64,000 bases of DNA, taken from positions 35,722-99,721 of the forward strand of contig JBDRES010000069.1 in NCBI GenBank assembly GCA_043819515.1. Reading direction: 5' to 3'. The notes beneath the pieces were generated by a model that did not search any database, was not told the origin of the DNA, and worked only from the letters and a program-made list of their open reading frames with translations. The stretch is from a bacterium (GTDB lineage Bacteria > Zixibacteria > MSB-5A5 > GN15 > FEB-12). Positions 11,427 through 53,647 of the stretch are shown here, piece after piece (the stretch's first letter is position 1; each line of letters starts with the position of its first letter). A program made the translations under genes and the position numbers.

Positions 11427-11441
11427 GATTGCTGGATTTTG

Positions 11442-21104: not shown

Positions 21105-23600
21105 TCAGTTGGCAAAAGCCTCCACGAAACTAGCCAGGTCGACCATCAGCTCCGACGCTTTTTGATAGCGATTCTTTGGTTCCTTTTGCAGAGCCTTCTC
21201 GACGATGTGGTCAAACAGCAGCGGTACCTGTGGGTTGACGTTCGAGGGCTTATCCGGTTGGTGGTTCAGTACCGAGTATATCAGCGAAGTGATGTTCTCA
21301 CCACGGAAGGGCCGCTTGCCCAACAGCAGTTCGTAGATGACCACGCCCAGCGAGAAGATGTCGGCGCGGTTGTCAATCGTCTGGCCGCGAAGTTGCTCAG
21401 GTGAGATATAGTTGGGAGTGCCCATGGCGATACCGGTCTTGGTCATGGAGTGCGATTCTACGCGGGCGATACCAAAATCCATAACCTTGGTCTGGTAATC
21501 CTTGAGGATCATGATATTGGCCGGCTTGATGTCGCGGTGGACTATCTGACGATCATGGGCGTATTGCAGCGCCGAACAGATCTGCATGATGATCTGCGCC
21601 AGGATGCGATAGTTGAACTGCACCTTGCGCTTGATCATATCCTCCAGAGTTTCGCCTTCGAGGTACTCCATGGCGATATACTGAAGTTGTCCTTCCGAGC
21701 CGACGTCGTAAATGGTGACGATATTGGTGTGCGACAGCTTGCCTGCCGCTTGAGCCTCACGATGCAGGCGCTCTTTGAGTTCGGCTTCTTCCTCCGGATC
21801 GTTGACGAAATCCAGACGTATAGTTTTGAGAGCGACCGGTCGATTGATGGCCGGATCGAGGCCGCGGTAGACTTTCCCCATAGCCCCTTTGCCCAGAACT
21901 CCGGTAACTTGATAGCGGCCGAGCGATTTGAGCTGAGTGCCGCCGGACTGAGAGGCGGCTGGTCGAGGCTGATTCGACGTTTTGTCACGAGGCGCGTCGG
22001 TGGTTTCTCGTGAAGGGGTGACGATGGCAGCCTCGGCAGAACGACCGAGTTCCTGGTCATTGCCGATGATATTCAGGTTGCCGCTGTCGTCGGGCGCCGC
22101 GGCCTCCGGGGCAGTAGCCAGGGGTGTTTCTACCTCGCTGCTGTCGTCGAGGGTGATAGCCTGGTAGTCCTGCATCTGTGTCGAGCCATCGGTCACTGCG
22201 ACGGTGTCCTCGGCTGCCAGGGGCCGGCTGTCGATGTGTCGCGTCGGGACATTTTCCGGGTCGGAGACAGAGGCCGGGATTTTGCGTACGGGGACGCTCT
22301 TGGATTTGTCTTTGTCGCCTTGTTTGGCAGCTACTGTTACCGCAGCCATAGCCTCCTCCCGGGCGCCCTTGGCCGCCAGAAGGATGGAATCCAGGAACAG
22401 GGAGGCCGCCATAAACAGCAACAACTCCAGGGCGAAAAACACCGGTTGGATCAGGGTGTTGTTGAAGGCGGCAAAGTAATAGGTGACTCCGACCAGAACC
22501 ACCGTCATCGCCAGGAGCGACAACAGCCGCCGGGCCAGGCGCAGTTGCGGCAGAAAGAAGGCGCCAAGAGCACCGATGGCAAACATGATGATCATGTCCA
22601 CTGCCGCCCGGTCGGTGCGGACAGTGAGCATGTCGTCACTAATGATATTGTCCAGGACACTGGCCGTGACCTGCAGTTTGCTGACCTGCTTACCACCGGG
22701 AATGTCAAACATCACGAGGTCGTCCGGCTGGGCCGCGCCGATCAGTACCATGCGACCTTTGAGGAGCGATCGGTCAAATCCGTCGCTGAGCAGTTCGGCC
22801 GCGGAATAGGTCGTGAAAGCGTCGGCCGGTAAATGTCGGATGTAGTATTCGGAGCCTTTCCCGATTGGGATCGAACGTTGCACTCCGACGAGAATCTTGT
22901 CGTCTTCGACAACCGTAACCTGTTCGGTTGGAATTCTAAAATAGGCTGCCGCCGCGGCCAGGGCCAACGATGGATAATTGTAGCCCTCGTACGTCATCAC
23001 CATCGCTTGCCGCCGCAAAACGCGATCGTCGTCGGGCATCGTGTAATCGAAACCCAGAAGCGGCTTGGCACTAAGAATCTTTCCCGCCGGGAGGAAAACC
23101 TTGCGGACCAGCAGGCTTGAGCGCTCGTCCATGACTCCCAAAGGATTGTCCACCGAAAGAGAGTGGTCAAAGAGGTACTGGGCGGTCTTGGTTTGACTTG
23201 TCCGGTAGGTGGACAAGGCGATATCGTACGGCAAGACGACGTTTTTTATCCAACCAAGTTGTCCGGCCAGCACAGCATTGTGACCGGCCGAATCCTGGAA
23301 GGCGTCTTCACTCAGATCCATGTCGAGGGCGATTGCTCGCGGTTCGCCGGCGGCACTGGCCGCCAATAGATCCGCGACCAAATCACGATCCCACGGCCAG
23401 GCGCCGTACTCCTTCCGGGCCTGCTCGTCAATCATGACCAAACAGACGTTTGGCCCCTCGTTGGTGCTCGTGGTTACGCGGGTCAGCCAGTCATGGATAG
23501 TCTGCTGAAGGCCGCTCATGGGACTGAAGTCATTGATGTATAGAACGACCACCAGAACTGCGATCAAAAGGTACAGTATATATGAGGAGTACTTGCTCAT
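21105..23600 (-). CDS. CHASE2 sensor domain Ser/Thr protein kinase
   Basis: N-terminal TM helix plus an extracytoplasmic CHASE2-like domain, about 3 further TM helices and a low-complexity linker. C-terminal Hanks kinase motifs: GKGAMGKVYRG, VALK, HRDIKPANIM, DFGIA, GTPNYISPE. Start chosen at M19 (MSKYSS..) to avoid overlap with the upstream phosphatase. The alternative start is 23654. Confidence 0.8.
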   Translation of the reverse strand: MSKYSSYILYLLIAVLVVVLYINDFSPMSGLQQTIHDWLTRVTTSTNEGPNVCLVMIDEQARKEYGAWPWDRDLVADLLAASAAGEPRAIALDMDLSEDAFQDSAGHNAVLAGQLGWIKNVVLPYDIALSTYRTSQTKTAQYLFDHSLSVDNPLGVMDERSSLLVRKVFLPAGKILSAKPLLGFDYTMPDDDRVLRRQAMVMTYEGYNYPSLALAAAAAYFRIPTEQVTVVEDDKILVGVQRSIPIGKGSEYYIRHLPADAFTTYSAAELLSDGFDRSLLKGRMVLIGAAQPDDLVMFDIPGGKQVSKLQVTASVLDNIISDDMLTVRTDRAAVDMIIMFAIGALGAFFLPQLRLARRLLSLLAMTVVLVGVTYYFAAFNNTLIQPVFFALELLLFMAASLFLDSILLAAKGAREEAMAAVTVAAKQGDKDKSKSVPVRKIPASVSDPENVPTRHIDSRPLAAEDTVAVTDGSTQMQDYQAITLDDSSEVETPLATAPEAAAPDDSGNLNIIGNDQELGRSAEAAIVTPSRETTDAPRDKTSNQPRPAASQSGGTQLKSLGRYQVTGVLGKGAMGKVYRGLDPAINRPVALKTIRLDFVNDPEEEAELKERLHREAQAAGKLSHTNIVTIYDVGSEGQLQYIAMEYLEGETLEDMIKRKVQFNYRILAQIIMQICSALQYAHDRQIVHRDIKPANIMILKDYQTKVMDFGIARVESHSMTKTGIAMGTPNYISPEQLRGQTIDNRADIFSLGVVIYELLLGKRPFRGENITSLIYSVLNHQPDKPSNVNPQVPLLFDHIVEKALQKEPKNRYQKASELMVDLASFVEAFAN

Positions 23601-23619
23601 AATCCATCCGCTCCAATGC

Positions 23620-24348
23620 TTAGACGCCTGCCGCCAATCGCTTCGCGAGAACATCGGGCAATTGCGCCAGTTTCATCTTCTGTTGGGCCTGCTCAATATC
23701 ATAGTCCACTCGATGATACTCGATGCAGTATTCAGTGTGGTCAAATATTACGTAACATGCGCGCGGGTCGTTGTCCCGGGGCTGCCCGACCGAGCCCACA
23801 TTAATGAGGTAGCGCGCGTCGGGGTCCGGCTCAAAATCATGGGCAGTCCGGGAGCGGGGGCCTCCCGAAGCCATCTCCACAATAATAGTTGGGATGTGGG
23901 AATGGCCGCAGAAGCAAAGTTTCCCCTTTTGATTCTCGAAGGCTCGCATGGCTTCACCGGTATGCAATACGTATCGCCATTGCTCCGGTTCAAAGGGCGA
24001 TCCGTGAACCAGATGCACATCATTCTGAACGTGCTCGAGTTTGAACTGCGCAATAAACTCAAGGTCTTGGCTGCTCAGCATTTGTCTGGTCCACTCGGTG
24101 GCCGCTTTGGCCGCGGGATTGTAGTACTCCAGGGACTGCACACCCAAAACGGCACTCTCGTGGTTACCCATAATCTTTATTTCGCAATGGCTTGCGACCA
24201 GACCGAGGCACTCCCGGGGATTGGCACCGTATCCGATGACGTCGCCCAAGCTGTGGACAACGTCGACTCGGCAGGTGCTGATCTCGGCCAGGACAGCCGT
24301 GAGAGCTTCAAGGTTGCCGTGAACATCTGAGATGAAGGCGGTACGCAT
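23620..24348 (-). CDS. PPP-family metallophosphoesterase (putative Ser/Thr phosphoprotein phosphatase)
   Basis: SDVHGNLEAL, GDVIGYGANP, GNHE and LVHGSP motifs follow the GDxHG / GDxxDRG / GNHE pattern of calcineurin-like phosphatases. Confidence 0.7.
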   Translation of the reverse strand: MRTAFISDVHGNLEALTAVLAEISTCRVDVVHSLGDVIGYGANPRECLGLVASHCEIKIMGNHESAVLGVQSLEYYNPAAKAATEWTRQMLSSQDLEFIAQFKLEHVQNDVHLVHGSPFEPEQWRYVLHTGEAMRAFENQKGKLCFCGHSHIPTIIVEMASGGPRSRTAHDFEPDPDARYLINVGSVGQPRDNDPRACYVIFDHTEYCIEYHRVDYDIEQAQQKMKLAQLPDVLAKRLAAGV

Positions 24349-24351
24349 GGA

Positions 24352-25044
24352 TCACTTGGCCTCTACAAACCTCAATGAAGATTTCCCGATTGAGATAATG
24401 TCGCCGTTTTTCAATTCGTGCCTGGAGATGGCCTCACCATTGACCACGGTTTTGCCCTCACGACCGAGATTGATGAGTTGGTAGGTTTCCCCATCTTTGA
24501 CAATCTTGGCCTGGATCCCCGACAGCCAAAATCCCTTGGTTCGGACATGGACGAACTTGGCCTTGCCAAACGTGGTGACATCGCGATCGAGCTTGTGTTC
24601 GGCGAAGTCGGTATTCTCCAGGCCAACCAGGACCGAGCCGCCATAGTGGCTGACAATTTCGCGCTCGTGTCGATCGTTGGCCAGTAGTTCTTTCTGTTTT
24701 TTGGTGTTCAGCACCATGGTGCCGTCAAAGTCGGCCACGTCTGTGTTCTGATGCTGAACGTCGGCGTGGAAGACCAGGCTATATTTGCCGATAGTGATCA
24801 CGTCGTCATCGTGCAGAATCTCCTCGCTGATCTTGCGACTGTTGACAAAGGTGCCGTTCAGCGATTCGTTGTCGATAAGAACGGCCTCACCCTCATTGAA
24901 CTCGATCAGGGCGTGCTTTCGGGAGACACCGCGGTTTTCGAGCATGATGTCATTGTCATTGGTCCGGCCGATCGAGATCCGCCGTTTTTCAGTGACAATC
25001 CGCTCGATGATTTTGTTTTCAAACTTCACCACTATCTCTGGCAT
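24352..25044 (-). CDS. Tandem FHA-domain protein
   Basis: Two FHA cores: ISIGRTNDNDIMLENRGVSRKHALIE...NGTFVN and TTFGKAKFVHVR...SGIQAKIV...VNGEAI. First gene of the FHA-phosphatase-kinase operon. Confidence 0.8.
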   Translation of the reverse strand: MPEIVVKFENKIIERIVTEKRRISIGRTNDNDIMLENRGVSRKHALIEFNEGEAVLIDNESLNGTFVNSRKISEEILHDDDVITIGKYSLVFHADVQHQNTDVADFDGTMVLNTKKQKELLANDRHEREIVSHYGGSVLVGLENTDFAEHKLDRDVTTFGKAKFVHVRTKGFWLSGIQAKIVKDGETYQLINLGREGKTVVNGEAISRHELKNGDIISIGKSSLRFVEAK

Positions 25045-26154: not shown

Positions 26155-26276
26155 GCGACTCTCGTCAACCGTTGCGCCCGGAGGGGCTTCTTTGTCCTTG
26201 CCTGGCAACGCCGGGCCGCCTATATTAGGAGCCAACTTGCTGATAACATTGACCTTACAGGATGTCAGGTGGCTTG

Positions 26277-27239
26277 ATGAAAACTCTGATTATCGCCCTG
26301 CAAAAAGAGGGTAAACTTCTTCCCGGGTCGTTTGAAATGGTAACTGCCGCCCAAGAACTGGGAGGCGAAATTATAAGTGCCGTGCTGGCCGACAGCGCCG
26401 AGCCTCTGGCCAATGAACTGGCCGGACGGGGTGGCGGGAAGGTGTTGGCAGTGTCGCACGGCTCGCTGGCCAACTTCAATGACCAGGTCTACGCGGCCGT
26501 TTGCTCGGAACTGATTGCCAAACACACCCCCGACGTGATTTTGGCCCCGGCTGTGAATTATGGCAGAGCCTTGCTGGCGAGACTGGCCGCCAAGCATGGT
26601 GGCTCGCAGGTCTCTGATGCTATCGGCCTGGCGGTCGATGGCGGCAAGGTGGTTGTGACCAGACCTGGTTTTGGCGGCTCGGTGATAGCCAAGGTAGAGA
26701 AATCCGGTGGCTCGCCGTTCTTTATCACGGTGCGAGGGAAGATCTTCGCCGAATCAACCGGCGGCAGCGGCGAAGTGGTGGCCGAGACGGTTGCGGATTC
26801 ATGTTTTGAATCGAAAATGAATGTCAGCGAAGTCAGGGTCGAGGCCGGCGATGCCGTTAGCCTGAATGATGCCGATGTTATCGTATCAGCCGGGCGCGGT
26901 CTCAAGGCCGCTGAAAATATCCCTATGGTCGAGGAGTTTGCGAAGGTCCTTGGCGCCGCCGTGGGAGCCTCGCGCGCTATTGTTGATGCCGGTTGGGTGC
27001 CATACTCCTGGCAAGTGGGGCAGACCGGCAAGACCGTCAACCCCAAGCTTTACTTCGCCGTGGGTATCTCCGGCGCTATCCAGCACCTGGTCGGTATGCG
27101 TTCATCGCAGACGATTGTGGCCATCAACAAAGACAAAGATGCACCGGTCTTTAATGTGGCCAACTATGGCATCGTGGGTGATGCTCTGGAAATCCTGCCG
27201 GCGCTGACGGCCAAATTCAAGGCTGCGCTGGGCAAGTAG
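26277..27239 (+). CDS. etfA: Electron transfer flavoprotein alpha subunit
   Basis: C-terminal FAD-binding signature [22 protein letters not shown] 26277, preceded by AGGTGG. No etfB is adjacent. Confidence 0.8.
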
Positions 27240-27265
27240 ACCCGACTAACATATTGTGTAATTAA

Positions 27266-27300
27266 AAACACCCGCTGCCTGGGCAGCGGGTGTTTTTGTT
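27266..27300. terminator. Bidirectional rho-independent terminator between etfA (+) and cytochrome-PKD gene (-)
   Basis: AAAAACACCCGCTGCC-TGG-GCAGCGGGTGTTTTTGTT: a 10-11 bp GC-rich stem flanked by an A5 run on one side and a T5 run on the other. Confidence 0.75.
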
Positions 27301-27343: not shown

Positions 27344-30300
27344 TTACAAGGCCGTCACTGTGAATTCAGCGTAATCCTCCCTGCCGCAGATGTTTACTAC
27401 GCGCAAGGTGATGGTGTATACGCCCGCATTCTGGATGGTAAGAGGCCAAGGCGCCGACTTGGCAGTCGTGGCTTCGTACGATTCGATACTGGCGCCTGTG
27501 CTGTCCTTCAAGGTCCACTGCCACAGCGTAATGAATCCGGTGGTGTCGGCTGAAAAATACGTCAACTGGCCGAACTGAACGGTATTGTCTCCACTTATCG
27601 CGGCGTTGGGAGCTGCGTCCGGAATGACCCGAATGTGTTCGCTCTTGAACTCGAGGTCTGAGTAAATGCCGCTGCTGTCCGTTGCGGTCAGCTGTACATT
27701 GTACAAACCGGCTTCTTGATAAACGAAGGTTGGGTTCTGCTCGTTGGATGTATCCGAAGCGTTGCTGGTGAATTTCCACAGCCATTGGGCCGGATCGCAG
27801 TCGGACAGGTCTGTAAACTGAACCTCCGTCCCGGCACAAACGATAGTGTCTGAGACACTGAATTCGGCCACTACTTGTTGGACACTGATGTAGTTGACGG
27901 AATCGGTGGTAGCCGTGAAGTCCCCCTGCGTGACGGTGAGCCCCACCGTCCTCTTGCCGGTTTGAGTATAAGTGTGCGTTACAACTGAATCGGTGGTCGT
28001 CAAGGTGCTGACGTCGCCAAAGTCCCAGACAAACGAGTCGACCGCACAACCCGGAGTCGCCGTAAATGTTGCTATCATTCCGATACAGCCGGCCGTGTCC
28101 GGGGTAGAGAACGCAGCCGACGGTCCCAGGATCGTAACCTGCCCGTAGGCGGTGTCGCTGCCGTACACGGTAGTGACAACATGCTTGACTATCTGGTTGC
28201 CGACAACATTCATCTCCTTGATCGGTTCAGCATCGGCAACGGCGATGGAATCGTTACCAAAATACCATTCATGCGTGGCGGTGACGCCGACGAGGCAGGT
28301 AGTGTCTTTTAGGGTGAAGGCGATCTCAGTCCCGGAGCAGGTAGTATCCAGACTGGCCGTGAATCCGGCGTCGGGTCCTTCGACATCAATCAGCTTGCTG
28401 CGAAGGCGGCTATGGGTGCTGTCGTCGTCGACCACGATATCGTCGTTGAAAACGGCCGTCAGGATGACAGTAGTCCAGCCGGCGGTTGTGAGAGTGTCTG
28501 TAAAGGGCGGGAAGATGCCACCCTCTTTTTGCTGCAGGCGCGTCTTGAGCGTGTCGCCCGCGTTGTTGAGGTAATACCAGAGGCAGTGTTTGATGTTGGC
28601 CATATCGCGAGAAGTGTTGTGGAAGGTCACCTCCAGCGGCGCGCAACCGTCAACAGCACTGACCCAGAAATTGGCGGCCGGCTTCCAGACCTCGATGAAG
28701 CTGTGCTTGATGGCCGCCACCGAATCCAGTGGTGTCACGATCAACAACCGGACATCATAGAACCCCGGTTTGGTATATGTGTAGCTCGGGTTCTGCTCGA
28801 CGGAAGTATCCGCCAGCGAATTGGGATCACCAAAGTCCCAGAGCCAATTGGTGATCTGGTCTGATGGTTGCGAATTGTCGGTGAAGTGCACCGTGAAGGG
28901 GGCATGGTCAAACTTCCAGTCGGATGCAAATGCTACCTGCGGTCCCAAAGCGCGGATGCTCTTGGTGGCGGTGCTCAGGACCGTGACCGAATCGCGGGCA
29001 TCGATGATTTTCAGGCTAACCTGGAAATCACTAATAGTATCAAAGGTGTGCACTCCGGGATCTTCCAGGATGAGAGTGCTGTCGTCGCCGAAGTCCCATT
29101 CGTAATAGATCGAATCGACATCAGCGCACGTCGACGAATCCATGAAAGTGACGTCTAGTGGCGCAAAACCGCTGTCGATATCGGACCATATTTGCGCCTC
29201 GGGCCCCCAGACCGTCACGACACCGGCCTTGCTTACGGTGTCGACGTGGCCGCGGTGATCCTCGACAATGAGAGTCACGGTGTACACGCCGGGGTTGGCA
29301 TAGGTGTAGTCAAATCCGCCCTGGTTGTCGAGGGTGTCCTCGATTATCCATCTCCAGCTTTCGATGCCGCTCATACTGGTCGAACGATCGGTAAACTCAA
29401 CCGCTAATGGTGCGCAGCCGTCGCTGACGCTGACTTCGAAGTCGGCGTGTGGCGGCGAGTCCTCGGACCACACCGTCAGAGATTTGCTCAGCAGAGCGCC
29501 AAAGAACCTGGGATTGTGCACGCCCCGGGAGCCGTCCGACTGGTACAGCAGATAGTTGTGAAGCACGTCGATCTGCTCGTCGTTGAGATCAGCACCCGGA
29601 TCGAAGCTCCGGCGGGTTGGGTCGTCGGGATCCAGAATTCCCCAGGTAGCCAGCAACTGCCGGAGGCTGTCGGCCAAAATCGGTAGAGAATCATAGTTGG
29701 AGAAGTGAGCCAGCGAATCCAGCCGCCTCAGGGTTGCCGAGTGACAGCCGCTGATCCGACAATTGGTCAAGTACCCTTCGCCGGTCTGTGGGTTGGACAA
29801 CCGGAATGTGTGCTCGCCAAACAGGTAGCCTTGCCCCTTGCCATAGTGGCAGCCGAGACAGCCGTCGGTAACCTTATCGTGGGAATTGGTGTCTGGAGGT
29901 TCCTGACCGAACCAGGCGCCGTTTTTGCCGATCAGGACATCGGCCTGTGGGCTGAAGTGTGGTCCCCAGTCGGCGCTCAGAATGCGTTCGGCCGAGTTTG
30001 AGGGGGCACCGTTCACGGCCTGGTGACACATAGCGCAGGCGTTGGATTTGCCGTGGGCATAGACCGCATTGCCGGCCAGGAGGGTGTAGTCGGATCCGGC
30101 GTCGGCACTGATCCCACGCAAAGAGTCCGACCAGGAGCGGGGATCATCGCCGGTGTGTGGGGCGTGGCAGGTAAAGCACTTGATGACGTTAGGTGATGAC
30201 TGCCCACCGGCAGTGCCTTTGGCAATGTAGTCCAGGAAACCTTCGTGAGTATGGCAGCGTGCTCCGCACTGTGAGGCCAGACCCAACTCACCGTTGATCT

Positions 30301-30535
30301 CCACCGGATGCTGAAGGAGTTCATCGGAAGCGTGGCGTGAGTTCTCGTACTGGCTTTTGGGCCGCAGGTAGCGATTGTAGTCGTCGGTGTGACACGTGAC
30401 ACACTCCTGCCCCAGGGTGCTGTCATACTGGATGACGGTTGTGGACTGGGTGACGAGTTCATCGCAGCCCGGAATGACCAGAACCAGCCCCACGATTGCC
30501 AGGGCCGCAAGCGGCAAAAACGATCTGAGATTCAT
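27344..30535 (-). CDS. Lipoprotein with multiheme cytochrome c domain fused to multiple PKD repeats
   Basis: Lipobox LVIPGC. Four canonical CxxCH motifs (CVTCH, CFTCH, CAMCH, CLGCH) plus CGARCH and CRISGCH variants in the first about 280 aa. At least five repeats carry the PKD signature WxFGDxS (YEWDFGDDS, WLWDFGDPNS, WYFGNDS, FVWDFGDVS, WLWKFTSNAS). Confidence 0.75.
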   Translation of the reverse strand: MNLRSFLPLAALAIVGLVLVIPGCDELVTQSTTVIQYDSTLGQECVTCHTDDYNRYLRPKSQYENSRHASDELLQHPVEINGELGLASQCGARCHTHEGFLDYIAKGTAGGQSSPNVIKCFTCHAPHTGDDPRSWSDSLRGISADAGSDYTLLAGNAVYAHGKSNACAMCHQAVNGAPSNSAERILSADWGPHFSPQADVLIGKNGAWFGQEPPDTNSHDKVTDGCLGCHYGKGQGYLFGEHTFRLSNPQTGEGYLTNCRISGCHSATLRRLDSLAHFSNYDSLPILADSLRQLLATWGILDPDDPTRRSFDPGADLNDEQIDVLHNYLLYQSDGSRGVHNPRFFGALLSKSLTVWSEDSPPHADFEVSVSDGCAPLAVEFTDRSTSMSGIESWRWIIEDTLDNQGGFDYTYANPGVYTVTLIVEDHRGHVDTVSKAGVVTVWGPEAQIWSDIDSGFAPLDVTFMDSSTCADVDSIYYEWDFGDDSTLILEDPGVHTFDTISDFQVSLKIIDARDSVTVLSTATKSIRALGPQVAFASDWKFDHAPFTVHFTDNSQPSDQITNWLWDFGDPNSLADTSVEQNPSYTYTKPGFYDVRLLIVTPLDSVAAIKHSFIEVWKPAANFWVSAVDGCAPLEVTFHNTSRDMANIKHCLWYYLNNAGDTLKTRLQQKEGGIFPPFTDTLTTAGWTTVILTAVFNDDIVVDDDSTHSRLRSKLIDVEGPDAGFTASLDTTCSGTEIAFTLKDTTCLVGVTATHEWYFGNDSIAVADAEPIKEMNVVGNQIVKHVVTTVYGSDTAYGQVTILGPSAAFSTPDTAGCIGMIATFTATPGCAVDSFVWDFGDVSTLTTTDSVVTHTYTQTGKRTVGLTVTQGDFTATTDSVNYISVQQVVAEFSVSDTIVCAGTEVQFTDLSDCDPAQWLWKFTSNASDTSNEQNPTFVYQEAGLYNVQLTATDSSGIYSDLEFKSEHIRVIPDAAPNAAISGDNTVQFGQLTYFSADTTGFITLWQWTLKDSTGASIESYEATTAKSAPWPLTIQNAGVYTITLRVVNICGREDYAEFTVTAL

Positions 30536-30734
30536 CTATGAATTTTCCTTTGTAAGCGGTCTCATGCCCACGTTATATAAGCGGCCCCGGCGGGAGTGTC
30601 AATTGTTTACTACGTTGTACCCCGCGCAGTTGCGCCCGTTCCCCGGAGAACGGCCTGAGCTGCGGTTTCAGGTGGTCAAGATCAGTGGCTATTCGGTCGA
30701 ATAGTACCAAAAGAGCTTTTTTTTTGGAGTAATT

Positions 30735-33266
30735 ATGTCAGTCATGATCGAGATCCTTGAATGGGTCGACCCGACCGGCGATGAGATGATCTACCGCATT
30801 CCGCAGGAGGGCTCGGCCGACATTAAGATGGGCGCGCAGTTGATTGTCCGGGACAGTCAGATGGCCATGTTTTTCCACAACGGCCACGTGGCCGATTCAT
30901 TTACAACCGGTCGTCACTCGTTGTCGACCCACAACCTGCCGATTATCACGCGGCTGCTGGCTTTGCCGTTTGGATTTAAGTCACCGTTCCGGGCGGAAGT
31001 CTATTTTGTCAATCAAAAAGTGTTCACAGATCTCAAGTGGGGCACCAAGCATCCGGTCACATTCAAAGACAGCAAGTTGGGCCTCATTCGCTTGCGCGGC
31101 CACGGCGCCTTTACAATGCAGATAGAGAATCCAATGCTGTTTCTCAATTCCATCGTCGGTCGCCAGGCCCGGTACACGACGGCCGACATACAATCTTATC
31201 TGCGCGATGTCATCATTGCTCGTCTGAACGACCTGCTGGGTGAGGAGTTGGAATCGGTTCTGGATTTGCCGGCGGTATATACTGAACTGGCCGAGAAGTT
31301 CAAGAATGTGGTGCACCGGGAATTCGACAAGTATGGTCTCGAATTGGTCGATTTCTACATTGCCTCCATCACCCCTCCGGACGAAGTCGCCAAACTCATC
31401 GACCAGCGGTCCGGCATGGAGGCGGTTGGTGATGTCGACAAGTTCCTCAAATTCGAAATGGCCCGGGGCCTCGGCGCTCCTGGCGGTCCCGGCGGGGCCG
31501 GAGCCGGTATTGGTATGGCTGCTGGAGTTGGCGTCATGATGCCGAGTCTGATGAACCGTGTTTTTGCTCCCGAGCAGACCGATTTGAAGCGGGAGCCGGT
31601 TTCTACCGTGGCCTGTCCCAAGTGCCATACCGAGACACCCGAACAATCACGCTTTTGTTATCGCTGTGGCCATCAGATGATCGCCCTAAACACCTGTCCG
31701 TCATGCAACAACGAGCTGCCACCGGAGGCCAGCTTCTGCCTGCATTGCGGTCAGAAGCTCAACGCCCGGCATATGTGTCCGCACTGTAAGGCCGAGATAA
31801 TAATGGGATCCCGGTTCTGCGGTTCGTGCGGCAAGCAAATCGAGGCCGATGACACACCCTCAACGACAGCCAGTAATCAGAGCGGCTTTTATATCGGCCT
31901 GGGTTGCCCCGGCTGCGGGGGCGAGGTAAGGCAGCAAGAGGATTTTTACGTTTTGACCTGCGGTCATTGCGGGTCGGTCCTGCGGGTGCGAATGCCGGAT
32001 CAGCCCCCGGCCTTTATGGTCTCGGCCCGAATCGATGCCGGCCAGGCCAGATTCCATATTGATCGCTTTCAGAAGAAGCAGGCGGCGCCACTTACCAACC
32101 CCGGTCTTCAGTACAAGTTCCTGTACTATCCGTACTGGAAGGTCGACGCCATCATGCTCAAGCTTCGTAATCGGGTCGAAGAACGCGTTTACGTTACCGA
32201 ATCCGGTGAAGGCGGGTCAATCGAGCACCGCACCGAGACCCCCACCACCAACATCAACCTGGTGCCCTACATGACCACTGTTCCGGCCGGCCCGGAAATG
32301 AGTGGTAGACCGCCATCGATCGGCTCACGGGCTGATTATATCAAGTTGGTGCCGTACAGCCGGGAGAACACGCAGGATGGATTTGATTCGCTGCCCATCT
32401 CCCGGACCTGGGCCGAGGTATGGGAGGAACTGAACAAGAAAGTTCGGGCTGTGGGGACCATCGAGACGGCCGGCTTCGGCCGCAATCGTACGGAGATGTT
32501 CAGGCCGCTGCCACGACTCGTCTATTATCCCCTGGTGGTGGCCGAGCAGTATGGCCACAGTTCATTTGATCGGTGGGTACTTGACGGGCTCAGCGGCCGC
32601 GTGGTTGATCATCGTCACACCATCCCTGAGGATAGTATTACCTCCGAGGAAATGCCGGTGGTCAAATTTGGTGAGTTGGAGATTGATTTCCATCGTTGTC
32701 CGAACTGCGGCGATGATCTGCCGGCGGACGACGCTTGCCTGTGTATCTGTACGAACTGCGATCAAGTGATCAATCTCGATCTGCAATCGCGTGCTCCGGA
32801 CAGCATAGATATCGTCGATGGCCCGGTCGACAGCACCGCCGAGCTGTTTCCATTTTGGGTATTGGATTTGCCGCCTTCAGACGAAGCCACGCTGCGGGCG
32901 GTAGTCGGCGGACTGTTTGAGTCGACCAGCCTGGTGGTGCCGGCCTTTCGCATGTCTGGTTTTGACGGCTGCTATCGCCTGGCTCGGCGCATGTCGACGG
33001 CTCATCCGCGATTGCCGCTCCGGCCGCTGGATACTCATCAGGAGCGGCCCCACGCCGTCAATGTGAGTTTCTCCGAAGCGCTACTGATGGGCCAACTGAC
33101 CCTTTACCGCGCTCGCCTGTCTCAGAATCCCGACCAGGCGCTTGTCTGCCGGAGTCTCGAACCCGGCCGGGTCAGGCTGCTTTACGTCCCTTTCCAGAGG
33201 CAAGCTTACTTCTTTGTTGATACCGTCACAGATTCGGTGACCTTCGAAAAGAAACTCATCTCTTAG
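30735..33266 (+). CDS. SPFH/Band-7 (YdjI-like, PF13421-type) domain protein fused to three zinc-ribbons and a large C-terminal domain
   Basis: N-terminus IEILEWVDPTGDEMIYRIP...KMGAQLIVRDSQMAMFF...FKSPFRAEVYFVNQKVFTDLKWGT matches my recollection of the Bacillus YdjI SPFH family. Then CPKCH..CYRCG, CPSCN..CLHCG and CPHCK..CGSCG double zinc ribbons, and further CxxC pairs (CPGCGG..CGHCG; CPNCG..CTNCD) in a C-terminal region of about 450 aa. Confidence 0.7.
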   Translation: MSVMIEILEWVDPTGDEMIYRIPQEGSADIKMGAQLIVRDSQMAMFFHNGHVADSFTTGRHSLSTHNLPIITRLLALPFGFKSPFRAEVYFVNQKVFTDLKWGTKHPVTFKDSKLGLIRLRGHGAFTMQIENPMLFLNSIVGRQARYTTADIQSYLRDVIIARLNDLLGEELESVLDLPAVYTELAEKFKNVVHREFDKYGLELVDFYIASITPPDEVAKLIDQRSGMEAVGDVDKFLKFEMARGLGAPGGPGGAGAGIGMAAGVGVMMPSLMNRVFAPEQTDLKREPVSTVACPKCHTETPEQSRFCYRCGHQMIALNTCPSCNNELPPEASFCLHCGQKLNARHMCPHCKAEIIMGSRFCGSCGKQIEADDTPSTTASNQSGFYIGLGCPGCGGEVRQQEDFYVLTCGHCGSVLRVRMPDQPPAFMVSARIDAGQARFHIDRFQKKQAAPLTNPGLQYKFLYYPYWKVDAIMLKLRNRVEERVYVTESGEGGSIEHRTETPTTNINLVPYMTTVPAGPEMSGRPPSIGSRADYIKLVPYSRENTQDGFDSLPISRTWAEVWEELNKKVRAVGTIETAGFGRNRTEMFRPLPRLVYYPLVVAEQYGHSSFDRWVLDGLSGRVVDHRHTIPEDSITSEEMPVVKFGELEIDFHRCPNCGDDLPADDACLCICTNCDQVINLDLQSRAPDSIDIVDGPVDSTAELFPFWVLDLPPSDEATLRAVVGGLFESTSLVVPAFRMSGFDGCYRLARRMSTAHPRLPLRPLDTHQERPHAVNVSFSEALLMGQLTLYRARLSQNPDQALVCRSLEPGRVRLLYVPFQRQAYFFVDTVTDSVTFEKKLIS

Positions 33267-33486: not shown

Positions 33487-36150
33487 TTGGTGGGGACAAC
33501 AGTGAATAGAAAATCGGCGTCACTATTAGCCCTGACAATCTTGCTGGCCCTCAGTACCGTCCAGGCTCAGTCGGTCCTGCCCAAGCCCGCGGCGGCACCC
33601 GATTCCGGGTATACCAGTAACGCCGCCACCGACGTCGCCTTGCACGGCGGCGGTATATGGATGGCCACCGATGAAGGCGCCCAGGTGACCTACGATCAGG
33701 GGCAGACCTGGCTGCGGATCGGCCAGGGCACCGGGTTGATCAGCGAAATCGTCTCGGCCATATACTCGAGCGGGACGCGGCTGTGGATGGGAACCAGTCA
33801 CTCGCAGATGTATGATGGCGGCCGATACGCCTACTCCGATGGTGTTTCCTTCAGTGATGACAACGGGACTACCTGGCATCATATCGATTTTTCCGAGAGT
33901 GGACAGAACATCGATTGGGTAAGTGGTGTCTCCCGAACCGTTTTTGACATCACCGGCCACATCGATGAGGATCAAGATGCGGAGTGGGTTGTCTTTGCGG
34001 CTTTTGCCGGCGGCTTTCTGGCATCTCGCGATGGCGGCCTCAACTGGCGACGGATTTTCCCGACCACCATCGACTCGGTTCAATTCGTTTTTGGAGGTAC
34101 GCCCTCGGAGAGGAACCGCGCCTTCTCCTGCGTGGCTGATACCTCGCGCGGCGACACGTTGTACTTGTGGACCGGGACTGCCGAGGGGATTTTCCAGTAT
34201 ATCTTTGCTACGCCGAAACAGAAACCGCATTCAAAGCACATCAATCGGATTGCCTTTTGTGACGAATGCCCCGATTCGAGTTGGGTGTTTTATGGCGGCC
34301 ACGACGGTTTCACGCGCGGGCTGACCACCGGCCGTCCGTATATCAGTCGCCTGGAAGAAGACGGCTTGCCGGGGCCGGCGATCTCGGCTCTGATTGATTT
34401 CCGCGGCCGCTTGCTGGTGGCCACCTATGATGATGCCACCGATCTGTTCACCGGCCTGGCCTGGTCGGATGATCGCGGCGAGTCGTTTCAAAGCGACGAT
34501 CATCCGGTGACGTCTTACAACGGTCGATTTGCCGGTGGTGAAGCGCTGGTCACAGATTTTGCTGCTGTTAGAGAACGGCTGTACCTGGCCGGTGGTGCTA
34601 ACGGGCTTTTTGTTTCGTCCGACTCCGGGCTGACGTGGGATGACATTCTCGTAGATTCCTCGGCCGCATCCAGTCTGCTCAACTCCGCCAACGCACTTTT
34701 TGCTGACGGCGACACGCTCCTGGTTGGTACGGACTCAGGCTTGGCCAGCCTCTTTCTTGATCCGTTGGGAGTCATCGATTCCTCCCGGTTCCATGTCTTT
34801 GGCGAATTTGATTCCAGCGCTTTCCATGTCGGCTCGACTCGCGTGATGCGGGTACGCGTGCAAAAATTCTCTGACGATGACACCGGCGAACTGGATTCTA
34901 TGGCCTACTGGACTGTCAATCAGCCGTTGACCTCGGAGGGACGCAGGATGGTGGGCAGGAACAATCCTGACTCCAGCCTCTGGAACCACTATCAATGGCG
35001 GGCTAAGAGCATTGACGTAAACTTTATTGGAGACACCGCCATTGTCATGGGTGAGGATGGCATCTGGTTCACATCCGACGGGGGCAACCCCGGAGCCAAG
35101 TTCGCCATTGAGGAGCATTCCGGGGGCAATACTGTCGATTCTTTTGGCAACGATGTCGTGACGACGATGGAAGTCATGGGTGATACCGTCGCCTTTGGAT
35201 CCAACAACGGCTTCGCAATCTCAACCAACCGGGGCGCTGATTTCGATGTGGTTCGAGTCAACACCGATCCCCTCAAGGCGGATCTGGTCATACACCATTT
35301 GGCCAGTCAGACGGCGTTCGAAGGACTCACCGGCGATTTTGTCCCGGCTCTTGATGTTCAGTATGTCGATGGTCAGCCGGCCCGCGTTTGGGCTTCCAAT
35401 CGCAGTACCGCCTACTGGCCGGACAGCAACGCCATCTCAGTGGGACAAGTGATGGAAGTGGACGCAGACGGGGAGTATGTGCCGCTGGGCTCGGCCGATT
35501 CGGTAAATGGTTATGTCTGGGTCTGGGATCGCGTCTATAACAAGACTTTCGCCTGGAATCACGCCTTCTATGGTGATTCGGTTTTTGCCGCCACCGACAG
35601 CGGCCTGGTGCTGTTGGAGCCCAACGAAACGGCGACGGTCTGGACAGCAACAGAAATACCTCTTGAAAACGAAAACGGTGAACCCTGGCTCGCGGCCGGC
35701 ACTTCTGTCTACGGCGTTGAAGTGCAACCACCGTACTTGTGGGTGGGTACGGATGATCGCACGCTGCGTCTGCGGCTGGATGACCTCGGTGATCAGACGG
35801 TCTACCAGGTCATCGATTCGACCACTCCGCCGGACGAAGTCTACGCTTTCCCAGTGCCTTATAGCCACGCTATGGATGGCGCCAGTGGTGGACTGCTCGA
35901 CTTTCACTTTGTCCTGGACCGGCCGGCCGACGTAACCATTACTGTTTACGATTTTGCTATGAACAAAGTGGCCACGGTGATCGAGAATCAACCGTTCCCG
36001 GCCGGGATTTACCCGTCGAGCGGATCGCTGCGTCCCCGTTGGAACGGTATCAATGACAAGGGCGATCAGGGGGCCGTGGGAGTTTACTATTTTAAGGTAG
36101 AGTACTCGACCGGCGAAACTTACTGGGGTAAACTGGCCCTGATCCCATAA
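33487..36150 (+). CDS. Secreted BNR/Asp-box repeat protein with T9SS/FlgD-Ig-like C-terminal domain
   Basis: Signal peptide. Repeated S-x-D-x-G-x-T-W Asp-boxes (SDDNGTTWHH, SRDGGLNWRR, SSDSGLTWDD, TSDGGNPG). C-terminal about 100 aa beta-sandwich (VTITVYDFAMNKVATV...GVYYFKVEY) resembles T9SS sorting / FlgD-Ig domains. Confidence 0.6.
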   Translation: MVGTTVNRKSASLLALTILLALSTVQAQSVLPKPAAAPDSGYTSNAATDVALHGGGIWMATDEGAQVTYDQGQTWLRIGQGTGLISEIVSAIYSSGTRLWMGTSHSQMYDGGRYAYSDGVSFSDDNGTTWHHIDFSESGQNIDWVSGVSRTVFDITGHIDEDQDAEWVVFAAFAGGFLASRDGGLNWRRIFPTTIDSVQFVFGGTPSERNRAFSCVADTSRGDTLYLWTGTAEGIFQYIFATPKQKPHSKHINRIAFCDECPDSSWVFYGGHDGFTRGLTTGRPYISRLEEDGLPGPAISALIDFRGRLLVATYDDATDLFTGLAWSDDRGESFQSDDHPVTSYNGRFAGGEALVTDFAAVRERLYLAGGANGLFVSSDSGLTWDDILVDSSAASSLLNSANALFADGDTLLVGTDSGLASLFLDPLGVIDSSRFHVFGEFDSSAFHVGSTRVMRVRVQKFSDDDTGELDSMAYWTVNQPLTSEGRRMVGRNNPDSSLWNHYQWRAKSIDVNFIGDTAIVMGEDGIWFTSDGGNPGAKFAIEEHSGGNTVDSFGNDVVTTMEVMGDTVAFGSNNGFAISTNRGADFDVVRVNTDPLKADLVIHHLASQTAFEGLTGDFVPALDVQYVDGQPARVWASNRSTAYWPDSNAISVGQVMEVDADGEYVPLGSADSVNGYVWVWDRVYNKTFAWNHAFYGDSVFAATDSGLVLLEPNETATVWTATEIPLENENGEPWLAAGTSVYGVEVQPPYLWVGTDDRTLRLRLDDLGDQTVYQVIDSTTPPDEVYAFPVPYSHAMDGASGGLLDFHFVLDRPADVTITVYDFAMNKVATVIENQPFPAGIYPSSGSLRPRWNGINDKGDQGAVGVYYFKVEYSTGETYWGKLALIP

Positions 36151-36156
36151 GAGGAG

Positions 36157-37161
36157 ATGATACGGATGCAATCTAGACAGCTTATTGCGACGGCCCTGAT
36201 CCTATTGCTGACGGCCGCTGTCTCCTCCGCGGTGGCAGGTGATGGCGACGGTGGTTATGCCGGGTCTTTTCTTCAGATGCCGATTGGAGCCCGGCCGGCC
36301 GCTATGGGCGGCGCTTACCTGGCCGTTTCCAATGACGGCGCCGGGGTGCTGTACAATCCGGCTGGCTTGACTTCCTTGCAACGCCCGATGCTGGCCACTT
36401 CTTATCGTCTGATGAAACTCGATCGCAAACTGGGTTATGCTACCGCCATGCTGCCGGCGCGTGGCAATTCCGTGATCGGTTTGCATTGGCTTTATGGCGG
36501 ATCCGGATCGGTTGAGCGACGCAATTACGACGGCGATGCTCTGGGTGACCAGATCAGCATGAACTCTCATGCTTTTTCGATCATATTTGCCAAACGCTTT
36601 GAGAGTGCCTTTTCGGCCGGAGTGAAGATGAACTATCTGCACTCGCAATTTGCCGAAATGTCGGCCTATTCGGTCGGCATCGATTTTGGCGTTATGTTCT
36701 ATCTCGACCACCTCTTTGGACGCGAGAAAGTCGGGTTACTGCCGATTGATGATGCGCAAGTGGGAATTACCCTCAATAACCTGGACGCCACCTACAACTG
36801 GAATAACGAAGCGTACGTTCACAAACACATCAGCGGCAGCGGCGTAGGCACCGAGCAAGCGGATGAAATCCCGATGGAATTTGGGCTGGGCTTGTCGGGG
36901 CGTTTGATGCAACGCAAGCTGTTGCTGGCGACCGACCTGATCAAGAACGCCAAGCAGGGAGCGGAACTTCACGCCGGGGCCGAGTATTTTGTGAAACCGG
37001 AGTTTGCCTTCCGGGGTGGTTTTTCCGACGGCCGCCTGACCGCGGGGACCGGCTACGTGTTTAGAATCGGCAGCCAGACTCTTGCGATCGATTACGCCTT
37101 CTCGACCGACAAAGCCGATGAAGGCTCCGAGCACATATTCTCTTTTGACCTCCTCTTCTGA
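36157..37161 (+). CDS. PorV/FadL-like outer-membrane beta-barrel protein (T9SS-associated family)
   Basis: Signal peptide, then the conserved N-terminal motif GARPAAMGGAYLAVSNDGAGVLYNPAGL shared by PorV/PorQ/FadL-type barrels. Alternating amphipathic strands and a C-terminal aromatic residue. Confidence 0.5.
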   Translation: MIRMQSRQLIATALILLLTAAVSSAVAGDGDGGYAGSFLQMPIGARPAAMGGAYLAVSNDGAGVLYNPAGLTSLQRPMLATSYRLMKLDRKLGYATAMLPARGNSVIGLHWLYGGSGSVERRNYDGDALGDQISMNSHAFSIIFAKRFESAFSAGVKMNYLHSQFAEMSAYSVGIDFGVMFYLDHLFGREKVGLLPIDDAQVGITLNNLDATYNWNNEAYVHKHISGSGVGTEQADEIPMEFGLGLSGRLMQRKLLLATDLIKNAKQGAELHAGAEYFVKPEFAFRGGFSDGRLTAGTGYVFRIGSQTLAIDYAFSTDKADEGSEHIFSFDLLF

Positions 37162-37170
37162 GGTGAGACG

Positions 37171-38079
37171 ATGAAGGTACTAAAATTCAGTCTCTTGGTA
37201 GCCGGCTTGGTTGTCACCATGAATGCGTCCGGAGTCGCTTCCGATGCCGGTCTGGCTCTGCTTACCAACGAGTATTCCGCCCGACCGGCGGGGATGGGTG
37301 GCGCGGCAGTTTCGATTCTGTCCGATCCCAACGCCATTTGGTACAACCCGGCTGCGGCGGTCGGACTGGACACGTTTACGGCTTCATTCGGCCATACGGT
37401 TTTCTGGGAGAATATCCGCTTCGAGTCCGGTTGCTTTGGAATCGGCTTGTCGCCCAGATTCTACCTGCATGGTGGCATTCGCATGGCCACCATCGACGAT
37501 ATCGAGCAACGGGGTGAAGTACCGACAACCCAACCGGAAGCGTTGTTTGGATCGCACGATATCTCCGGCAAACTAGGTTTGGCTTATCGGATGAGCGACG
37601 ACGTCGCTGTAGGGGCGGCCATTGGATGGATGTTTGAGGAAATCGAATCCTGGCGCGGGTCGGAGTTCAACGTCGATGTGGGTGTGAATGTCACGCCACG
37701 TATCGAGGGCCTCACCCTGGGTGCCGCCGTCACCGGCCTGGGCGGCGACATGGCTATCACCAAAGAAGGGACTATCGGTTCGCGCGAAATCCCCTTGCCG
37801 ACAACCTATCGATTCGGCGGTTCATATACTTATCGCTGGCTGCGCGGCGCGGCCGATTTGGTTTATCTCGATGACCAGGCCCACGCCCACCTGGGAGTCG
37901 AGGGCACTGTGTCAAAAGAACTCAATCTTCGCGCCGGCTACATGTCCGGCTATGATACTCGCAACATCACGGCCGGAGCGTCATTCGCATATCGCAACGT
38001 GCGCGTCGACTATGCCTTCCTGCCGTATTCTGATAATCTCGGAACAAGTCACCTGTTTAACGTAACGTTTAGTCTTTAG
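37171..38079 (+). CDS. PorQ/PorV-like outer-membrane beta-barrel protein (paralog of upstream gene)
   Basis: Signal peptide plus SARPAGMGGAAVSILSDPNAIWYNPAA motif. Ends ..NVTFSL. Tandem paralog of the upstream barrel. Confidence 0.5.
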   Translation: MKVLKFSLLVAGLVVTMNASGVASDAGLALLTNEYSARPAGMGGAAVSILSDPNAIWYNPAAAVGLDTFTASFGHTVFWENIRFESGCFGIGLSPRFYLHGGIRMATIDDIEQRGEVPTTQPEALFGSHDISGKLGLAYRMSDDVAVGAAIGWMFEEIESWRGSEFNVDVGVNVTPRIEGLTLGAAVTGLGGDMAITKEGTIGSREIPLPTTYRFGGSYTYRWLRGAADLVYLDDQAHAHLGVEGTVSKELNLRAGYMSGYDTRNITAGASFAYRNVRVDYAFLPYSDNLGTSHLFNVTFSL

Positions 38080-49897: not shown

Positions 49898-49910
49898 TTC
49901 CTGACGACCG

Positions 49911-51521: not shown

Positions 51522-51573
51522 TGCTTCCTCCGGCGGATTCTCTTGACTAATCGCATCATGTCGACCGGCGTCG

Positions 51574-52908: not shown

Positions 52909-52912
52909 GTTC

Positions 52913-53641: not shown

Positions 53642-53647
53642 AATAAG

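Follow-up and report, generated by a model that had tools for sequence, protein, structure and literature searches.

The minus strand of the 64-kb window (the whole stretch of DNA analysed here), from a Zixibacteria-type bacterium, encodes a predicted cell-envelope lipoprotein in which a hexaheme cytochrome c module is joined to eight tandem PKD domains. On balance we think that this lipid-anchored, extracytoplasmic member of the NrfA/OcwA superfamily serves electron exchange at the cell surface. Its precursor gene is complete (27344..30535, minus strand; 1063 aa), and the open reading frame is genuine as judged by its ATG start, the in-frame TAG immediately before it and an AAGGA about 12 nt upstream. 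The product is identical to NCBI MFH1688141.1, a record labelled only "MAG: PKD domain-containing protein [bacterium]", and genomes carrying the gene also include CP070796.1, CAVQCT010000002.1 (2.26 Mb) and CAZGMK010000005.1.

Six heme sites in an NrfA/OcwA-type module

The heme module spans residues ~41-359 (29459..30415; this and all positions within the gene are on the minus strand). As the original prediction had stated, it holds four CxxCH motifs, one Cx3CH and one Cx4CH; all six lie within residues 45-265. Site 1 (CVTCH, residues 45-49; 30389..30403) precedes five sites that parallel NrfA hemes 1-5, of which site 2, the Cx3CH motif (CGARCH, residues 90-95; 30251..30268), corresponds in motif order and spacing to NrfA heme 1 and OcwA heme 5. 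Site 3 (CFTCH, residues 120-124; 30164..30178) is followed by an invariant His127, and site 5 (CLGCH, residues 226-230; 29846..29860) has an invariant His219 seven residues upstream; the remaining two are site 4 (CAMCH, residues 167-171; 30023..30037) and site 6, the Cx4CH motif (CRISGCH, residues 259-265; 29741..29761). Against the four CxxCH motifs and two variants observed, the composition of the protein itself predicts 0.016 CxxCH per 1063 aa, and every other reading frame of the window has at most one.

Conservation in orthologs, the point at which the heme assignment had been declared open to refutation, upheld it. Across 64 sequences all motif cysteines and histidines are invariant, as are five further histidines (H68, H127, H219, H242 and H340), with one more His conserved in at least 90%; complete homologs keep all six sites. 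Spacing at site 2 varies among 74 homologs between CxxCH (27), Cx3CH (44) and Cx4CH (3), and at site 6 between CxxCH (21) and Cx4CH (53), with three more having Cx5CH or CxCH. Since distant relatives have a canonical CxxCH in place of the odd motifs of sites 2 and 6, these two are best taken as genuine heme sites. With conserved motifs and enough candidate distal ligands, the protein qualifies as a multiheme c-type cytochrome, and heme is probably attached covalently at all six motifs.

A heme-free AF2 model of the N-terminal domain displays the NrfA/OcwA-superfamily fold. Its globular heme domain is followed by a C-terminal three-helix bundle (helices 283-297, 319-333 and 342-359) with a GxHN histidine ligand, the combination that defines the NrfA/HAO/ONR/OcwA superfamily. 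Single-sequence searches of the PDB returned only a spurious epimerase (E 0.37) for the heme module and nothing useful for its homolog P0073; the relatives in the PDB were recognised through profile searches, in which the module matched, as did its fold, NrfA, octaheme nitrite reductases, HAO and MccA. We conclude that its closest structural relatives are OcwA and OmhA. Thus, of the comparison originally suggested with OmcA, MtrC and OcwA, relatedness to the OcwA type stood and the decaheme fold of MtrC/OmcA did not.

OcwA of Thermincola potens (PDB 6I5B) is a nonaheme cell-surface terminal reductase, whereas the window protein has six motifs; the alignment spans only OcwA residues ~256-497, and the N-terminal c554-like tetraheme module that OcwA combines with its pentaheme part has no equivalent here. 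OcwA is a cell-wall protein of a monoderm, unlike this lipoprotein of a diderm, and it has no counterpart of the Cx3CH and Cx4CH motifs or of the eight C-terminal PKD domains. At site 3 the sequence CHAPH compares with CHASH in OcwA and CHSPH in OmhA. Of the OcwA His-His motif (HH 380/381, heme 5) the window protein keeps only the first His (HF): the family consensus WGPHHSPQ reads WGPHFSPQ, so that H193 is kept and the second His is lost. By homology, H193 would cover the site-2 heme on its distal side, and site 2 itself appears to stand where NrfA and OcwA have their catalytic or open-coordination heme (NrfA heme 1, OcwA heme 5; mapping per PMC6703420). OcwA heme 9 is His-Met ligated, whereas the window protein offers the invariant H219. 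OmhA of Carboxydothermus ferrireducens (PDB 6QVM) differs in being undecaheme, with eleven hemes against six, and S-layer-associated, in a monoderm, without a lipid anchor or PKD array.

Compared with pentaheme NrfA (PDB 6V0A, 1OAH, 1QDB, 2J7A), the protein adds one N-terminal heme, the lipid anchor and the PKD array. It lacks the Lys-ligated CxxCK catalytic heme that marks NrfA in the strict sense: the equivalent site reads CGARCH in the window protein, and all 74 homologs scored have Cx2-4CH there. The Tyr that follows the NrfA heme-3 motif (CGQCHVEYY) is missing from the equivalent CAMCHQAV, the alignment being too divergent for the Arg and the Ca2+ ligands, and no nrfH or nrfBCD partner lies near the gene. 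Two other identities, a decaheme cytochrome of the MtrC/OmcA family or a polymerising nanowire cytochrome like OmcS, were suggested by a Pfam MtrC/MtrF domain II/IV match (E 5e-4, 20 bits), by the count of six hemes as in OmcS and by a local profile match to OmcS (E 0.058). The Pfam match is weak and sub-threshold, however, and MtrC/OmcA of the Shewanella MtrCAB complex (PDB 6R2Q) is a staggered-cross decaheme protein with two beta-barrel domains, to which the NrfA-like fold is unrelated; the four-domain fold of the MtrC/OmcA/UndA decahemes was not found. These comparisons together effectively refute either identity.

Lipid anchor and PKD array

The lipobox claimed at the outset is present. 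The signal peptide (residues 1-23; 30467..30535) was read from the sequence as MNLRSFLPLAALAIVGLVLVIPG, an n-region and h-region ending in the lipobox V-I-P-G before Cys24 (30464..30466), the predicted lipidation site by motif conservation in orthologs, which is followed by a conserved D-E-L-V-T. Almost every Zixibacterial ortholog has the pattern GCD[EKDN]L[VI]T, and homologs keep both the Cys and its -1 Gly. Signal peptide, lipobox and invariant +1 Cys together make the 1063-aa protein a bacterial lipoprotein. A lipobox-like pattern occurs in 119 of 133 family representatives, and 77 of these 119 have D or E at +2. Under the E. coli rule, Asp at +2 is a signal for retention at the inner membrane. 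Other proteins of the window carry a C-terminal sorting domain, indicating that the organism has cargo of the T9SS type, but the cytochrome-PKD protein gave no match to Por_Secre_tail/TIGR04183 in Pfam or NCBIfam and its last ~88 residues match the PKD HMM; we therefore rejected its identity as T9SS cargo. The +2 Asp and the missing T9SS domain weaken the case for surface exposure. By analogy with its relatives, the heme module would nonetheless sit directly at the membrane surface, most probably on the outer face of the outer membrane.

The rest of the protein (27350..29455) is an array of PKD (Ig-like) domains that reaches the C-terminus. Both Pfam models score well above their gathering cut-offs, each over six stretches: PKD_4 (PF18911) with E 5.5e-53 and 177.4 bits (cut-off 27), PKD (PF00801) with E 2.4e-36 and 124 bits (cut-off 23.5). 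A family-specific iterated HMM tiles residues 361-1062 with eight domains at E 1e-11 to 1e-23 (residues 361-443, 444-528, 531-617, 618-712, 720-803, 804-886, 887-971 and 975-1062). The earlier count of at least five domains was thus too low. The array is colinear over its whole length with that of an 8-PKD ortholog in L008 (41% identity).

It had also been proposed that the cytochrome is displayed on PKD stalks. This part of the architecture did not survive: the heme module adjoins the lipid anchor, with the PKD array beyond it, and therefore the cytochrome is not raised on a PKD stalk. As the array lacks a redox cofactor and lies distal to the anchor, it may rather be a long tether or adhesin, ~30 nm if extended, reaching toward particles, matrix or envelope polymers. 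Its PDB profile matches are to collagenase ColH (E 1.5e-26) and the Methanosarcina S-layer protein 1L0Q (E 6.6e-15), whose PKD arrays are joined to a hydrolase and to an S-layer propeller, respectively, whereas the array described here is joined to a redox module. No fusion of PKD domains to a multiheme cytochrome turned up in full-text literature searches.

Gene neighbourhood and family

Upstream, a 199-bp divergent intergenic region (30536..30734) is shared with an SPFH/zinc-ribbon gene and presumably contains the promoter, for which a sigma-70 scan of this region gave no convincing match; the cytochrome gene appears monocistronic. Downstream lies a convergent etfA (ETF alpha, 325 aa; 26262..27239, plus strand), and between the two genes a bidirectional intrinsic terminator (27264..27297) consists of a 10-bp GC-rich stem (27269-27278 / 27283-27292) with a 4-nt loop, A5 before it and T5 after. 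The hairpin 27269-27292 is predicted to be able to terminate both strands. This arrangement agrees with the original description, as does the orphan status of etfA: no etfB was found among ~40 ORFs of the 64-kb window scanned against Pfam.

That the cytochrome and EtfA form one electron-transfer unit is nevertheless very improbable. The convergent adjacency is kept in Zixibacteria from 8-PKD to PKD-less orthologs, including the complete genome CP070796.1, and no etfB lies in the window. Against such a unit, the genes are convergent with a strong terminator between them, EtfA, without a signal peptide, stays in the cytoplasm while the cytochrome is exported, and beyond Zixibacteria no etfA neighbours the family members. 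Because synteny covers the block as a whole (dus, FHA, phosphatase, kinase, SPFH), conserved gene order explains the adjacency, and we set the functional link aside as synteny of convergent genes. The Zixibacterial locus is conserved and housekeeping-like (SPFH, etfA, dus, FHA-phosphatase-kinase) and no respiratory cluster, which counts against the surface-conduit reading favoured below; tRNA and tmRNA genes were absent from the window.

The heme-module family comprises 2939 cluster representatives at E <= 1e-10; members whose public labels were examined are called "PKD domain-containing" or "hypothetical", and named sources include Krumholzibacteria and Eisenbacteria. The window contains no mtrA/mtrB-like genes and no other multiheme ORF, and clustering with genes for a periplasmic multiheme cytochrome and an outer-membrane barrel was seen neither there nor around the Zixibacterial orthologs. 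Such clustering does occur around five distant PKD-less homologs: in relatives of 29-34% identity from other phyla, lipoprotein homologs occupy the MtrC position in MtrA-like/MtrB-like clusters, behind the MtrB-like barrel. Two homolog clusters adjoin Rieske/cytochrome b genes, as in the cluster of Zixibacteria RBG-1. Around four distant homologs (P0078, P0052, P0073 and P0057) no recurrent neighbourhood was found; P0057 is preceded by a c554-like gene. The missing cluster lowers the claim that the window protein belongs to a conduit, not the claim that it works in a conduit-like manner. Full-text searches found no prior description of OcwA-like components in porin-cytochrome clusters. Zixibacteria have MtrAB-like genes, yet no extracellular cytochrome partner has been recognised in them (PMC3903129).

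Proposed function and its alternatives

In the mechanism that we favour, the precursor would be exported and Cys24 lipidated after cleavage of the signal peptide, as the conserved lipobox implies. Six hemes would then be bound covalently, those of sites 2-6 forming an NrfA-like chain equivalent to NrfA hemes 1-5 and OcwA hemes 5-9, with site 1 as an extra entry or exit heme and the five invariant histidines as probable distal ligands. At the membrane surface, a trans-outer-membrane MtrAB-type porin-cytochrome, whose genes would lie elsewhere in the genome, would trade electrons with the module, which would deliver them to acceptors outside the cell (Fe/Mn oxides or humics, for example) or run in reverse and take them up. 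This surface conduit step is proposed because the closest relatives are OcwA and OmhA and because homologs stand at the MtrC position. Thus, the extracellular electron transfer first read from the gene remains the favoured reading, though without the PKD stalk.

Location and substrate could both be different. A periplasmic enzyme or carrier, bound at the periplasmic face of the inner membrane or at the outer membrane's inner leaflet, might act on a small substrate (nitrite, hydroxylamine or sulfur oxyanions, as in other NrfA-superfamily members) at the site-2 heme, with the PKD domains making protein contacts. The fold and the matches to NrfA, octaheme nitrite reductases, HAO and MccA would suit such an enzyme, as would site 2 at the catalytic-heme position, where H193 aligns with OmhA "VHHPQ" and OcwA has its His-His over the open heme 5. 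The +2 Asp and the lack of outer-membrane conduit genes in the window point the same way, and OcwA itself reduces nitrite and hydroxylamine (PMC6703420). However, the NrfA hallmarks, CxxCK and the Tyr after the heme-3-equivalent motif (CHQAV against CHVEYY), are missing, and the available conserved histidines match the hemes in number, six to six. Extracellular proteins are the typical carriers of PKD arrays, eight such domains would be awkward in the periplasm, and lipoprotein homologs sit behind an MtrB-like barrel; we regard the periplasmic enzyme as somewhat unlikely.

Electron flow might also be inward. Multiheme chains are reversible in principle, and the same architecture at the same location could oxidise Fe(II), reduced minerals or humics through a Mto/Pio-like conduit. 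For the MtrAB-like cluster in Zixibacteria RBG-1, Castelle et al. preferred a role in Fe(II) oxidation, and the Rieske/cytochrome b genes beside two homolog clusters recall that arrangement. Yet the closest characterised relatives, OcwA and OmhA, reduce Fe(III) outside the cell, and Zixibacteria with porin-cytochromes, which count as putative metal reducers, are commoner where the sediment is ferruginous and anoxic. Heme potentials cannot be derived from sequence alone, and we consider a dedicated uptake function unlikely.

A bolder extension of the surface cytochrome that we favour can be put forward tentatively: the family may provide the Mtr-like conduits of Zixibacteria and related lineages with their "missing" extracellular partner, the Zixibacterial protein acting in addition as a catalytic cytochrome at the surface with PKD-based capture. 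If so, an OcwA/NrfA-fold hexaheme lipoprotein in place of MtrC would represent a new type of conduit. The Cx3CH heme would stand at an open-coordination active-site position with its distal His kept, and the tail of eight PKD domains would catch particles or polymers as substrate and deliver them to the site-2 heme. Fusion to so long a PKD array suggests that a single polypeptide couples adhesion with electron transfer.

Anoxic sediments and aquifers harbour abundant Zixibacteria, which have repeatedly been called putative iron cyclers for their MtrAB-like genes; this protein and its family could supply their missing outer component. Terminal reductases of the OcwA/OmhA type, hitherto characterised in Gram-positive thermophiles, would thereby be extended to diderm bacteria. 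The recurrent gene cluster, in which an OcwA-like hexaheme gene joins MtrA-like and MtrB-like genes, may go unscored by gene-marker tools for iron metabolism.

A conserved six-site cytochrome c module

The gene at 27344..30535 (minus strand) encodes 1063 aa from an ATG start; an in-frame TAG lies immediately 5' of the ATG, and some 12 nt upstream is an AAGGA box. Its product is identical to NCBI MFH1688141.1, publicly named only 'PKD domain-containing protein'; no annotation covers the cytochrome module, and all Pfam cytochrome matches are sub-threshold, with MtrC domain II/IV at 20 bits against a cut-off of 30. The six heme motifs of the original prediction are present as CVTCH (residues 45-49), CGARCH (90-95), CFTCH (120-124), CAMCH (167-171), CLGCH (226-230) and CRISGCH (259-265), hereafter sites 1-6. 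All 12 cysteines within residues 25-370 fall in these motifs, the amino-acid composition of the protein leads one to expect only 0.016 CxxCH, and no other reading frame of the 64-kb window contains more than one.

Using residues 1-370 as the query, we found 80 homologous cluster representatives, the best of them 45-47% identical to the query and their named sources all Zixibacteria (GN15). The order of the six sites was kept in all 74 homologs scorable for six motifs; of the other six, one is a fragment and three have Cx5CH or CxCH at site 6. None of the 74 departs from CxxCH at sites 3-5. At site 1 the motif is CxxCH in 69 homologs and Cx3CH in 5; site 2 divides into 27 CxxCH, 44 Cx3CH and 3 Cx4CH, and site 6 into 21 CxxCH and 53 Cx4CH. 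The sites with variant spacing in the window protein thus carry a canonical motif at the same position in distant relatives, as would be expected if these are true heme sites that tolerate a loop insertion. Across 64 aligned sequences, the motifs' 12 cysteines and six histidines are invariant, as are H68, H127, H219, H242 and H340, and H193 is kept in at least 90% of sequences; with H193 added to these five invariant histidines, candidate distal ligands therefore number six, as many as the hemes. Conservation of the motifs, on which the original prediction depended, was thus upheld: the protein has a c-type cytochrome module of six conserved sites, at which covalent heme attachment and ligation are probable.

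Relation of the heme module to NrfA and OcwA

An AlphaFold2 model of the module, built from the homolog alignment (pLDDT 79.7, pTM 0.78), consists mainly of coil and short helices followed by three long C-terminal helices (283-297, 319-333, 342-359). The top Foldseek match in the PDB was OmhA, the undecaheme S-layer cytochrome of Carboxydothermus ferrireducens (6QVM, probability 0.98), and octaheme nitrite reductases and NrfA came next. A profile of PKD-less homologs matched PDB sequences of OcwA, the nonaheme cell-surface reductase of Thermincola potens (E 3.3e-13), NrfA (5.9e-9) and OmhA (6.1e-9), and, more weakly, TvNiR (about 6e-5), HAO (about 1e-4) and MccA (2e-4). Because Foldseek and profile matches agree, the module is assigned by predicted fold and by profile to the NrfA/OcwA superfamily, and the suggested comparison with OcwA-type cytochromes has turned out positive at the level of the superfamily.

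The gaps between sites 2-6 (30, 47, 59 and 33 residues) parallel those between NrfA hemes 1-5. HMMER aligned sites 3, 4, 5 and 6 with CATCH, CGQCH, CADCH and CRQCH of D. vulgaris NrfA, and 'TGHA...CLKCH...CQVCHASH' of OcwA with 'SRHAS...site 2...site 3+H127'. Judged from these spacings and alignments, sites 2-6 would be the equivalents of NrfA hemes 1-5 and OcwA hemes 5-9, site 1 being extra, and this mapping would put site 2 (Cx3CH) at the catalytic-heme position. H340 is the histidine of the GxHN helix common to NrfA, OcwA and OmhA, and H242 the counterpart of the SxH that follows the heme-4-equivalent motif in NrfA and OcwA. H219 sits 7 residues ahead of the heme-4-equivalent cysteine, presumably the position of the NrfA histidine that ligates heme 5. 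In OcwA the heme at the position of site 2 (heme 5) is five-coordinate, and a His-His motif lies above its distal face (PMC6703420). HMMER pairs the family consensus WGPHHSPQ with 'GVHH-PQ' of OmhA, whereas the window protein reads WGPHFSPQ and retains only the first histidine (H193).

When 1.84 billion cluster representatives were searched with a profile, the family numbered 4565 at E <= 1e-3, of which 2939 reached E <= 1e-10 and 1070 reached E <= 1e-30. Some are giants with several copies of the module: the 1946-aa P0201 matches the module in six stretches and has 27 heme motifs, and this protein together with P0202, P0203, P0207, P0208 and P0230 spans four to six module stretches and 16-27 heme motifs per polypeptide. 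At another locus (L041, 4277-6083), a 182-aa cytochrome c554-like gene lies immediately 5' of the hexaheme homolog P0057; the two resemble a split version of OcwA, itself a c554-like module fused to an NrfA-like one.

Anchor, PKD array and genomic setting

The lipobox was confirmed: a charged n-region and a hydrophobic core of 15 residues precede VIPG and Cys24. The post-cysteine motif GCD[EKDN]L[VI]T is almost universal in Zixibacterial orthologs, and in the wider family 77 of the 119 representatives with a lipobox have D or E at +2. Pfam gave PKD_4 (E 5.5e-53) and PKD (E 2.4e-36) in six stretches each. An HMM seeded on three clear repeats and iterated on homologs resolved eight domains tiling residues 361-1062 without gaps (each E 1e-11 to 1e-23), so the "at least five" first counted was an undercount. 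The parts thus follow one another as lipid anchor, linker of about 20 residues, heme module and eight PKD domains up to the stop codon. From this order, the cytochrome is membrane-proximal and the PKD array distal, the reverse of the cytochrome on a PKD stalk originally proposed; the array may serve as a tether or adhesin. Orthologs have 0, 2, 3, 4 or 8 PKD domains, the eight-PKD form occurring in at least 7 clusters at 50% identity. The window protein and its 1062-aa ortholog at locus L008 are colinear domain by domain (41% identity overall), so the array was inherited and not recently expanded locally.

The gene appears to be monocistronic; it diverges from an SPFH/zinc-ribbon gene on one side and converges with etfA (26262..27239, plus strand) on the other. 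As predicted, a hairpin with a 10-bp GC-rich stem and A5 and T5 flanks (27264-27297) separates the two stop codons, and etfA is an orphan, no ETF beta gene being found among about 40 window ORFs scanned. Even G+C content throughout the region gives no compositional sign of recent import. The same locus recurs on a 2.26-Mb Zixibacterial contig, at L008 and L025, and in the complete genome CP070796.1, whose ortholog lacks PKD domains. The order is Iso_dh (an isocitrate/isopropylmalate-type dehydrogenase), a BNR/FlgD_ig protein, SPFH, cytochrome, etfA, dus, FHA, phosphatase and CHASE2 kinase. The etfA-cytochrome adjacency is therefore old synteny and no hint of co-function; elsewhere in Zixibacteria, CP070796.1 (L002) among them, an orphan etfA also stands beside dus (or larC/larB).

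The SPFH/Band-7 and double zinc-ribbon gene (30735..33266, plus) is one 843-aa ORF; at L001, L008 and L025 this stretch forms two genes, of about 375 aa (SPFH and zinc ribbons) and about 470-500 aa, which means either that the genes are fused in the window or that the relatives carry a split or a frameshift. The genes for the FHA protein, metallophosphoesterase and 849-aa CHASE2-sensor Ser/Thr kinase (21105..25044, minus) keep their order beside dus/etfA at L001 and L002. Two conserved genes 3' of the BNR/FlgD_ig gene (36157..37161 and 37171..38079, plus), without confident Pfam matches, also occur at L001; a weak FadL/OMPP1 N-terminal match (E 6e-4) suggests that the second may encode a protein of the outer membrane.

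A Tol-Pal-like cluster (MotA/ExbB, ExbD, TonB_2 protein, TolB and TPR/YfiO-like lipoprotein; 49109..54849, minus) confirms a diderm envelope, and the window also encodes an 808-aa FeoB ferrous-iron transporter (11439..13865, plus). Three large secreted proteins with T9SS-type C-terminal domains, a subtilase (Por_Secre_tail and FlgD_ig, 4599..7652), an M6 peptidase (FlgD_ig, 7730..10492) and an 887-aa protein (FlgD_ig, 33487..36150), all on the plus strand, indicate that the organism uses type IX secretion. In contrast, neither Pfam nor NCBIfam detected a T9SS sorting domain in the cytochrome, whose last about 88 residues match the PKD HMM.

Mtr-like clusters and a proposed role of the lipoprotein

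The most informative result of our analysis is the setting of five distant homologs. These PKD-less lipoproteins of 29-34% identity, P0054 (L039/L040), P0064 (L042), P0066 (L044), P0056 (L043) and the product of a 350-aa gene in L045, are encoded directly 3' of the same gene pair, in three-gene clusters at L039 2378-5990, L042 129-3795, L044 3378-7098, L045 6023-9655 and L043 3-1759. The first gene of the pair specifies a multiheme cytochrome of 315-336 aa, with some ten heme motifs and a match to Paired_CXXCH_1 (E about 1e-25), and the second a 26-strand MtrB-like barrel of 520-541 aa without a Pfam match, from a family whose named sources include Krumholzibacteria and Eisenbacteria. Thus, the clusters comprise an MtrA-like protein, an MtrB-like protein and, at the MtrC position, a hexaheme lipoprotein of OcwA/NrfA fold, an arrangement that seems to be a porin-cytochrome conduit of a form not described before. 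Rieske/cytochrome b genes adjoin two of the five (L043, L044), where NapC/NirT-type cytochrome genes also occur. Four other distant family members examined showed no Mtr-like context, and the 64-kb window holds no other multiheme ORF or barrel gene; literature on Zixibacteria suggests that an MtrAB-like partner may be encoded elsewhere in the genome.

We consider electron transfer at the cell surface somewhat better than an even bet for the window protein, which would then probably lie on the outer surface. Outward electron flow is the presumed direction, with a reversed (oxidative) flow as a subsidiary possibility. The main competing explanation, which we regard as rather unlikely, places the protein in the periplasm as a catalyst or carrier; in its favour are the NrfA ancestry, a site-2 heme that may be open and the +2 aspartate. 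The component parts of the protein are all of known kinds, and the full-text literature searched, a limited collection, describes neither a PKD-multiheme fusion nor OcwA-like hexaheme lipoproteins in porin-cytochrome clusters. The value of the protein lies mainly in offering a candidate, amenable to testing, for the outer cytochrome that is missing from the Mtr-like conduits of Zixibacteria.
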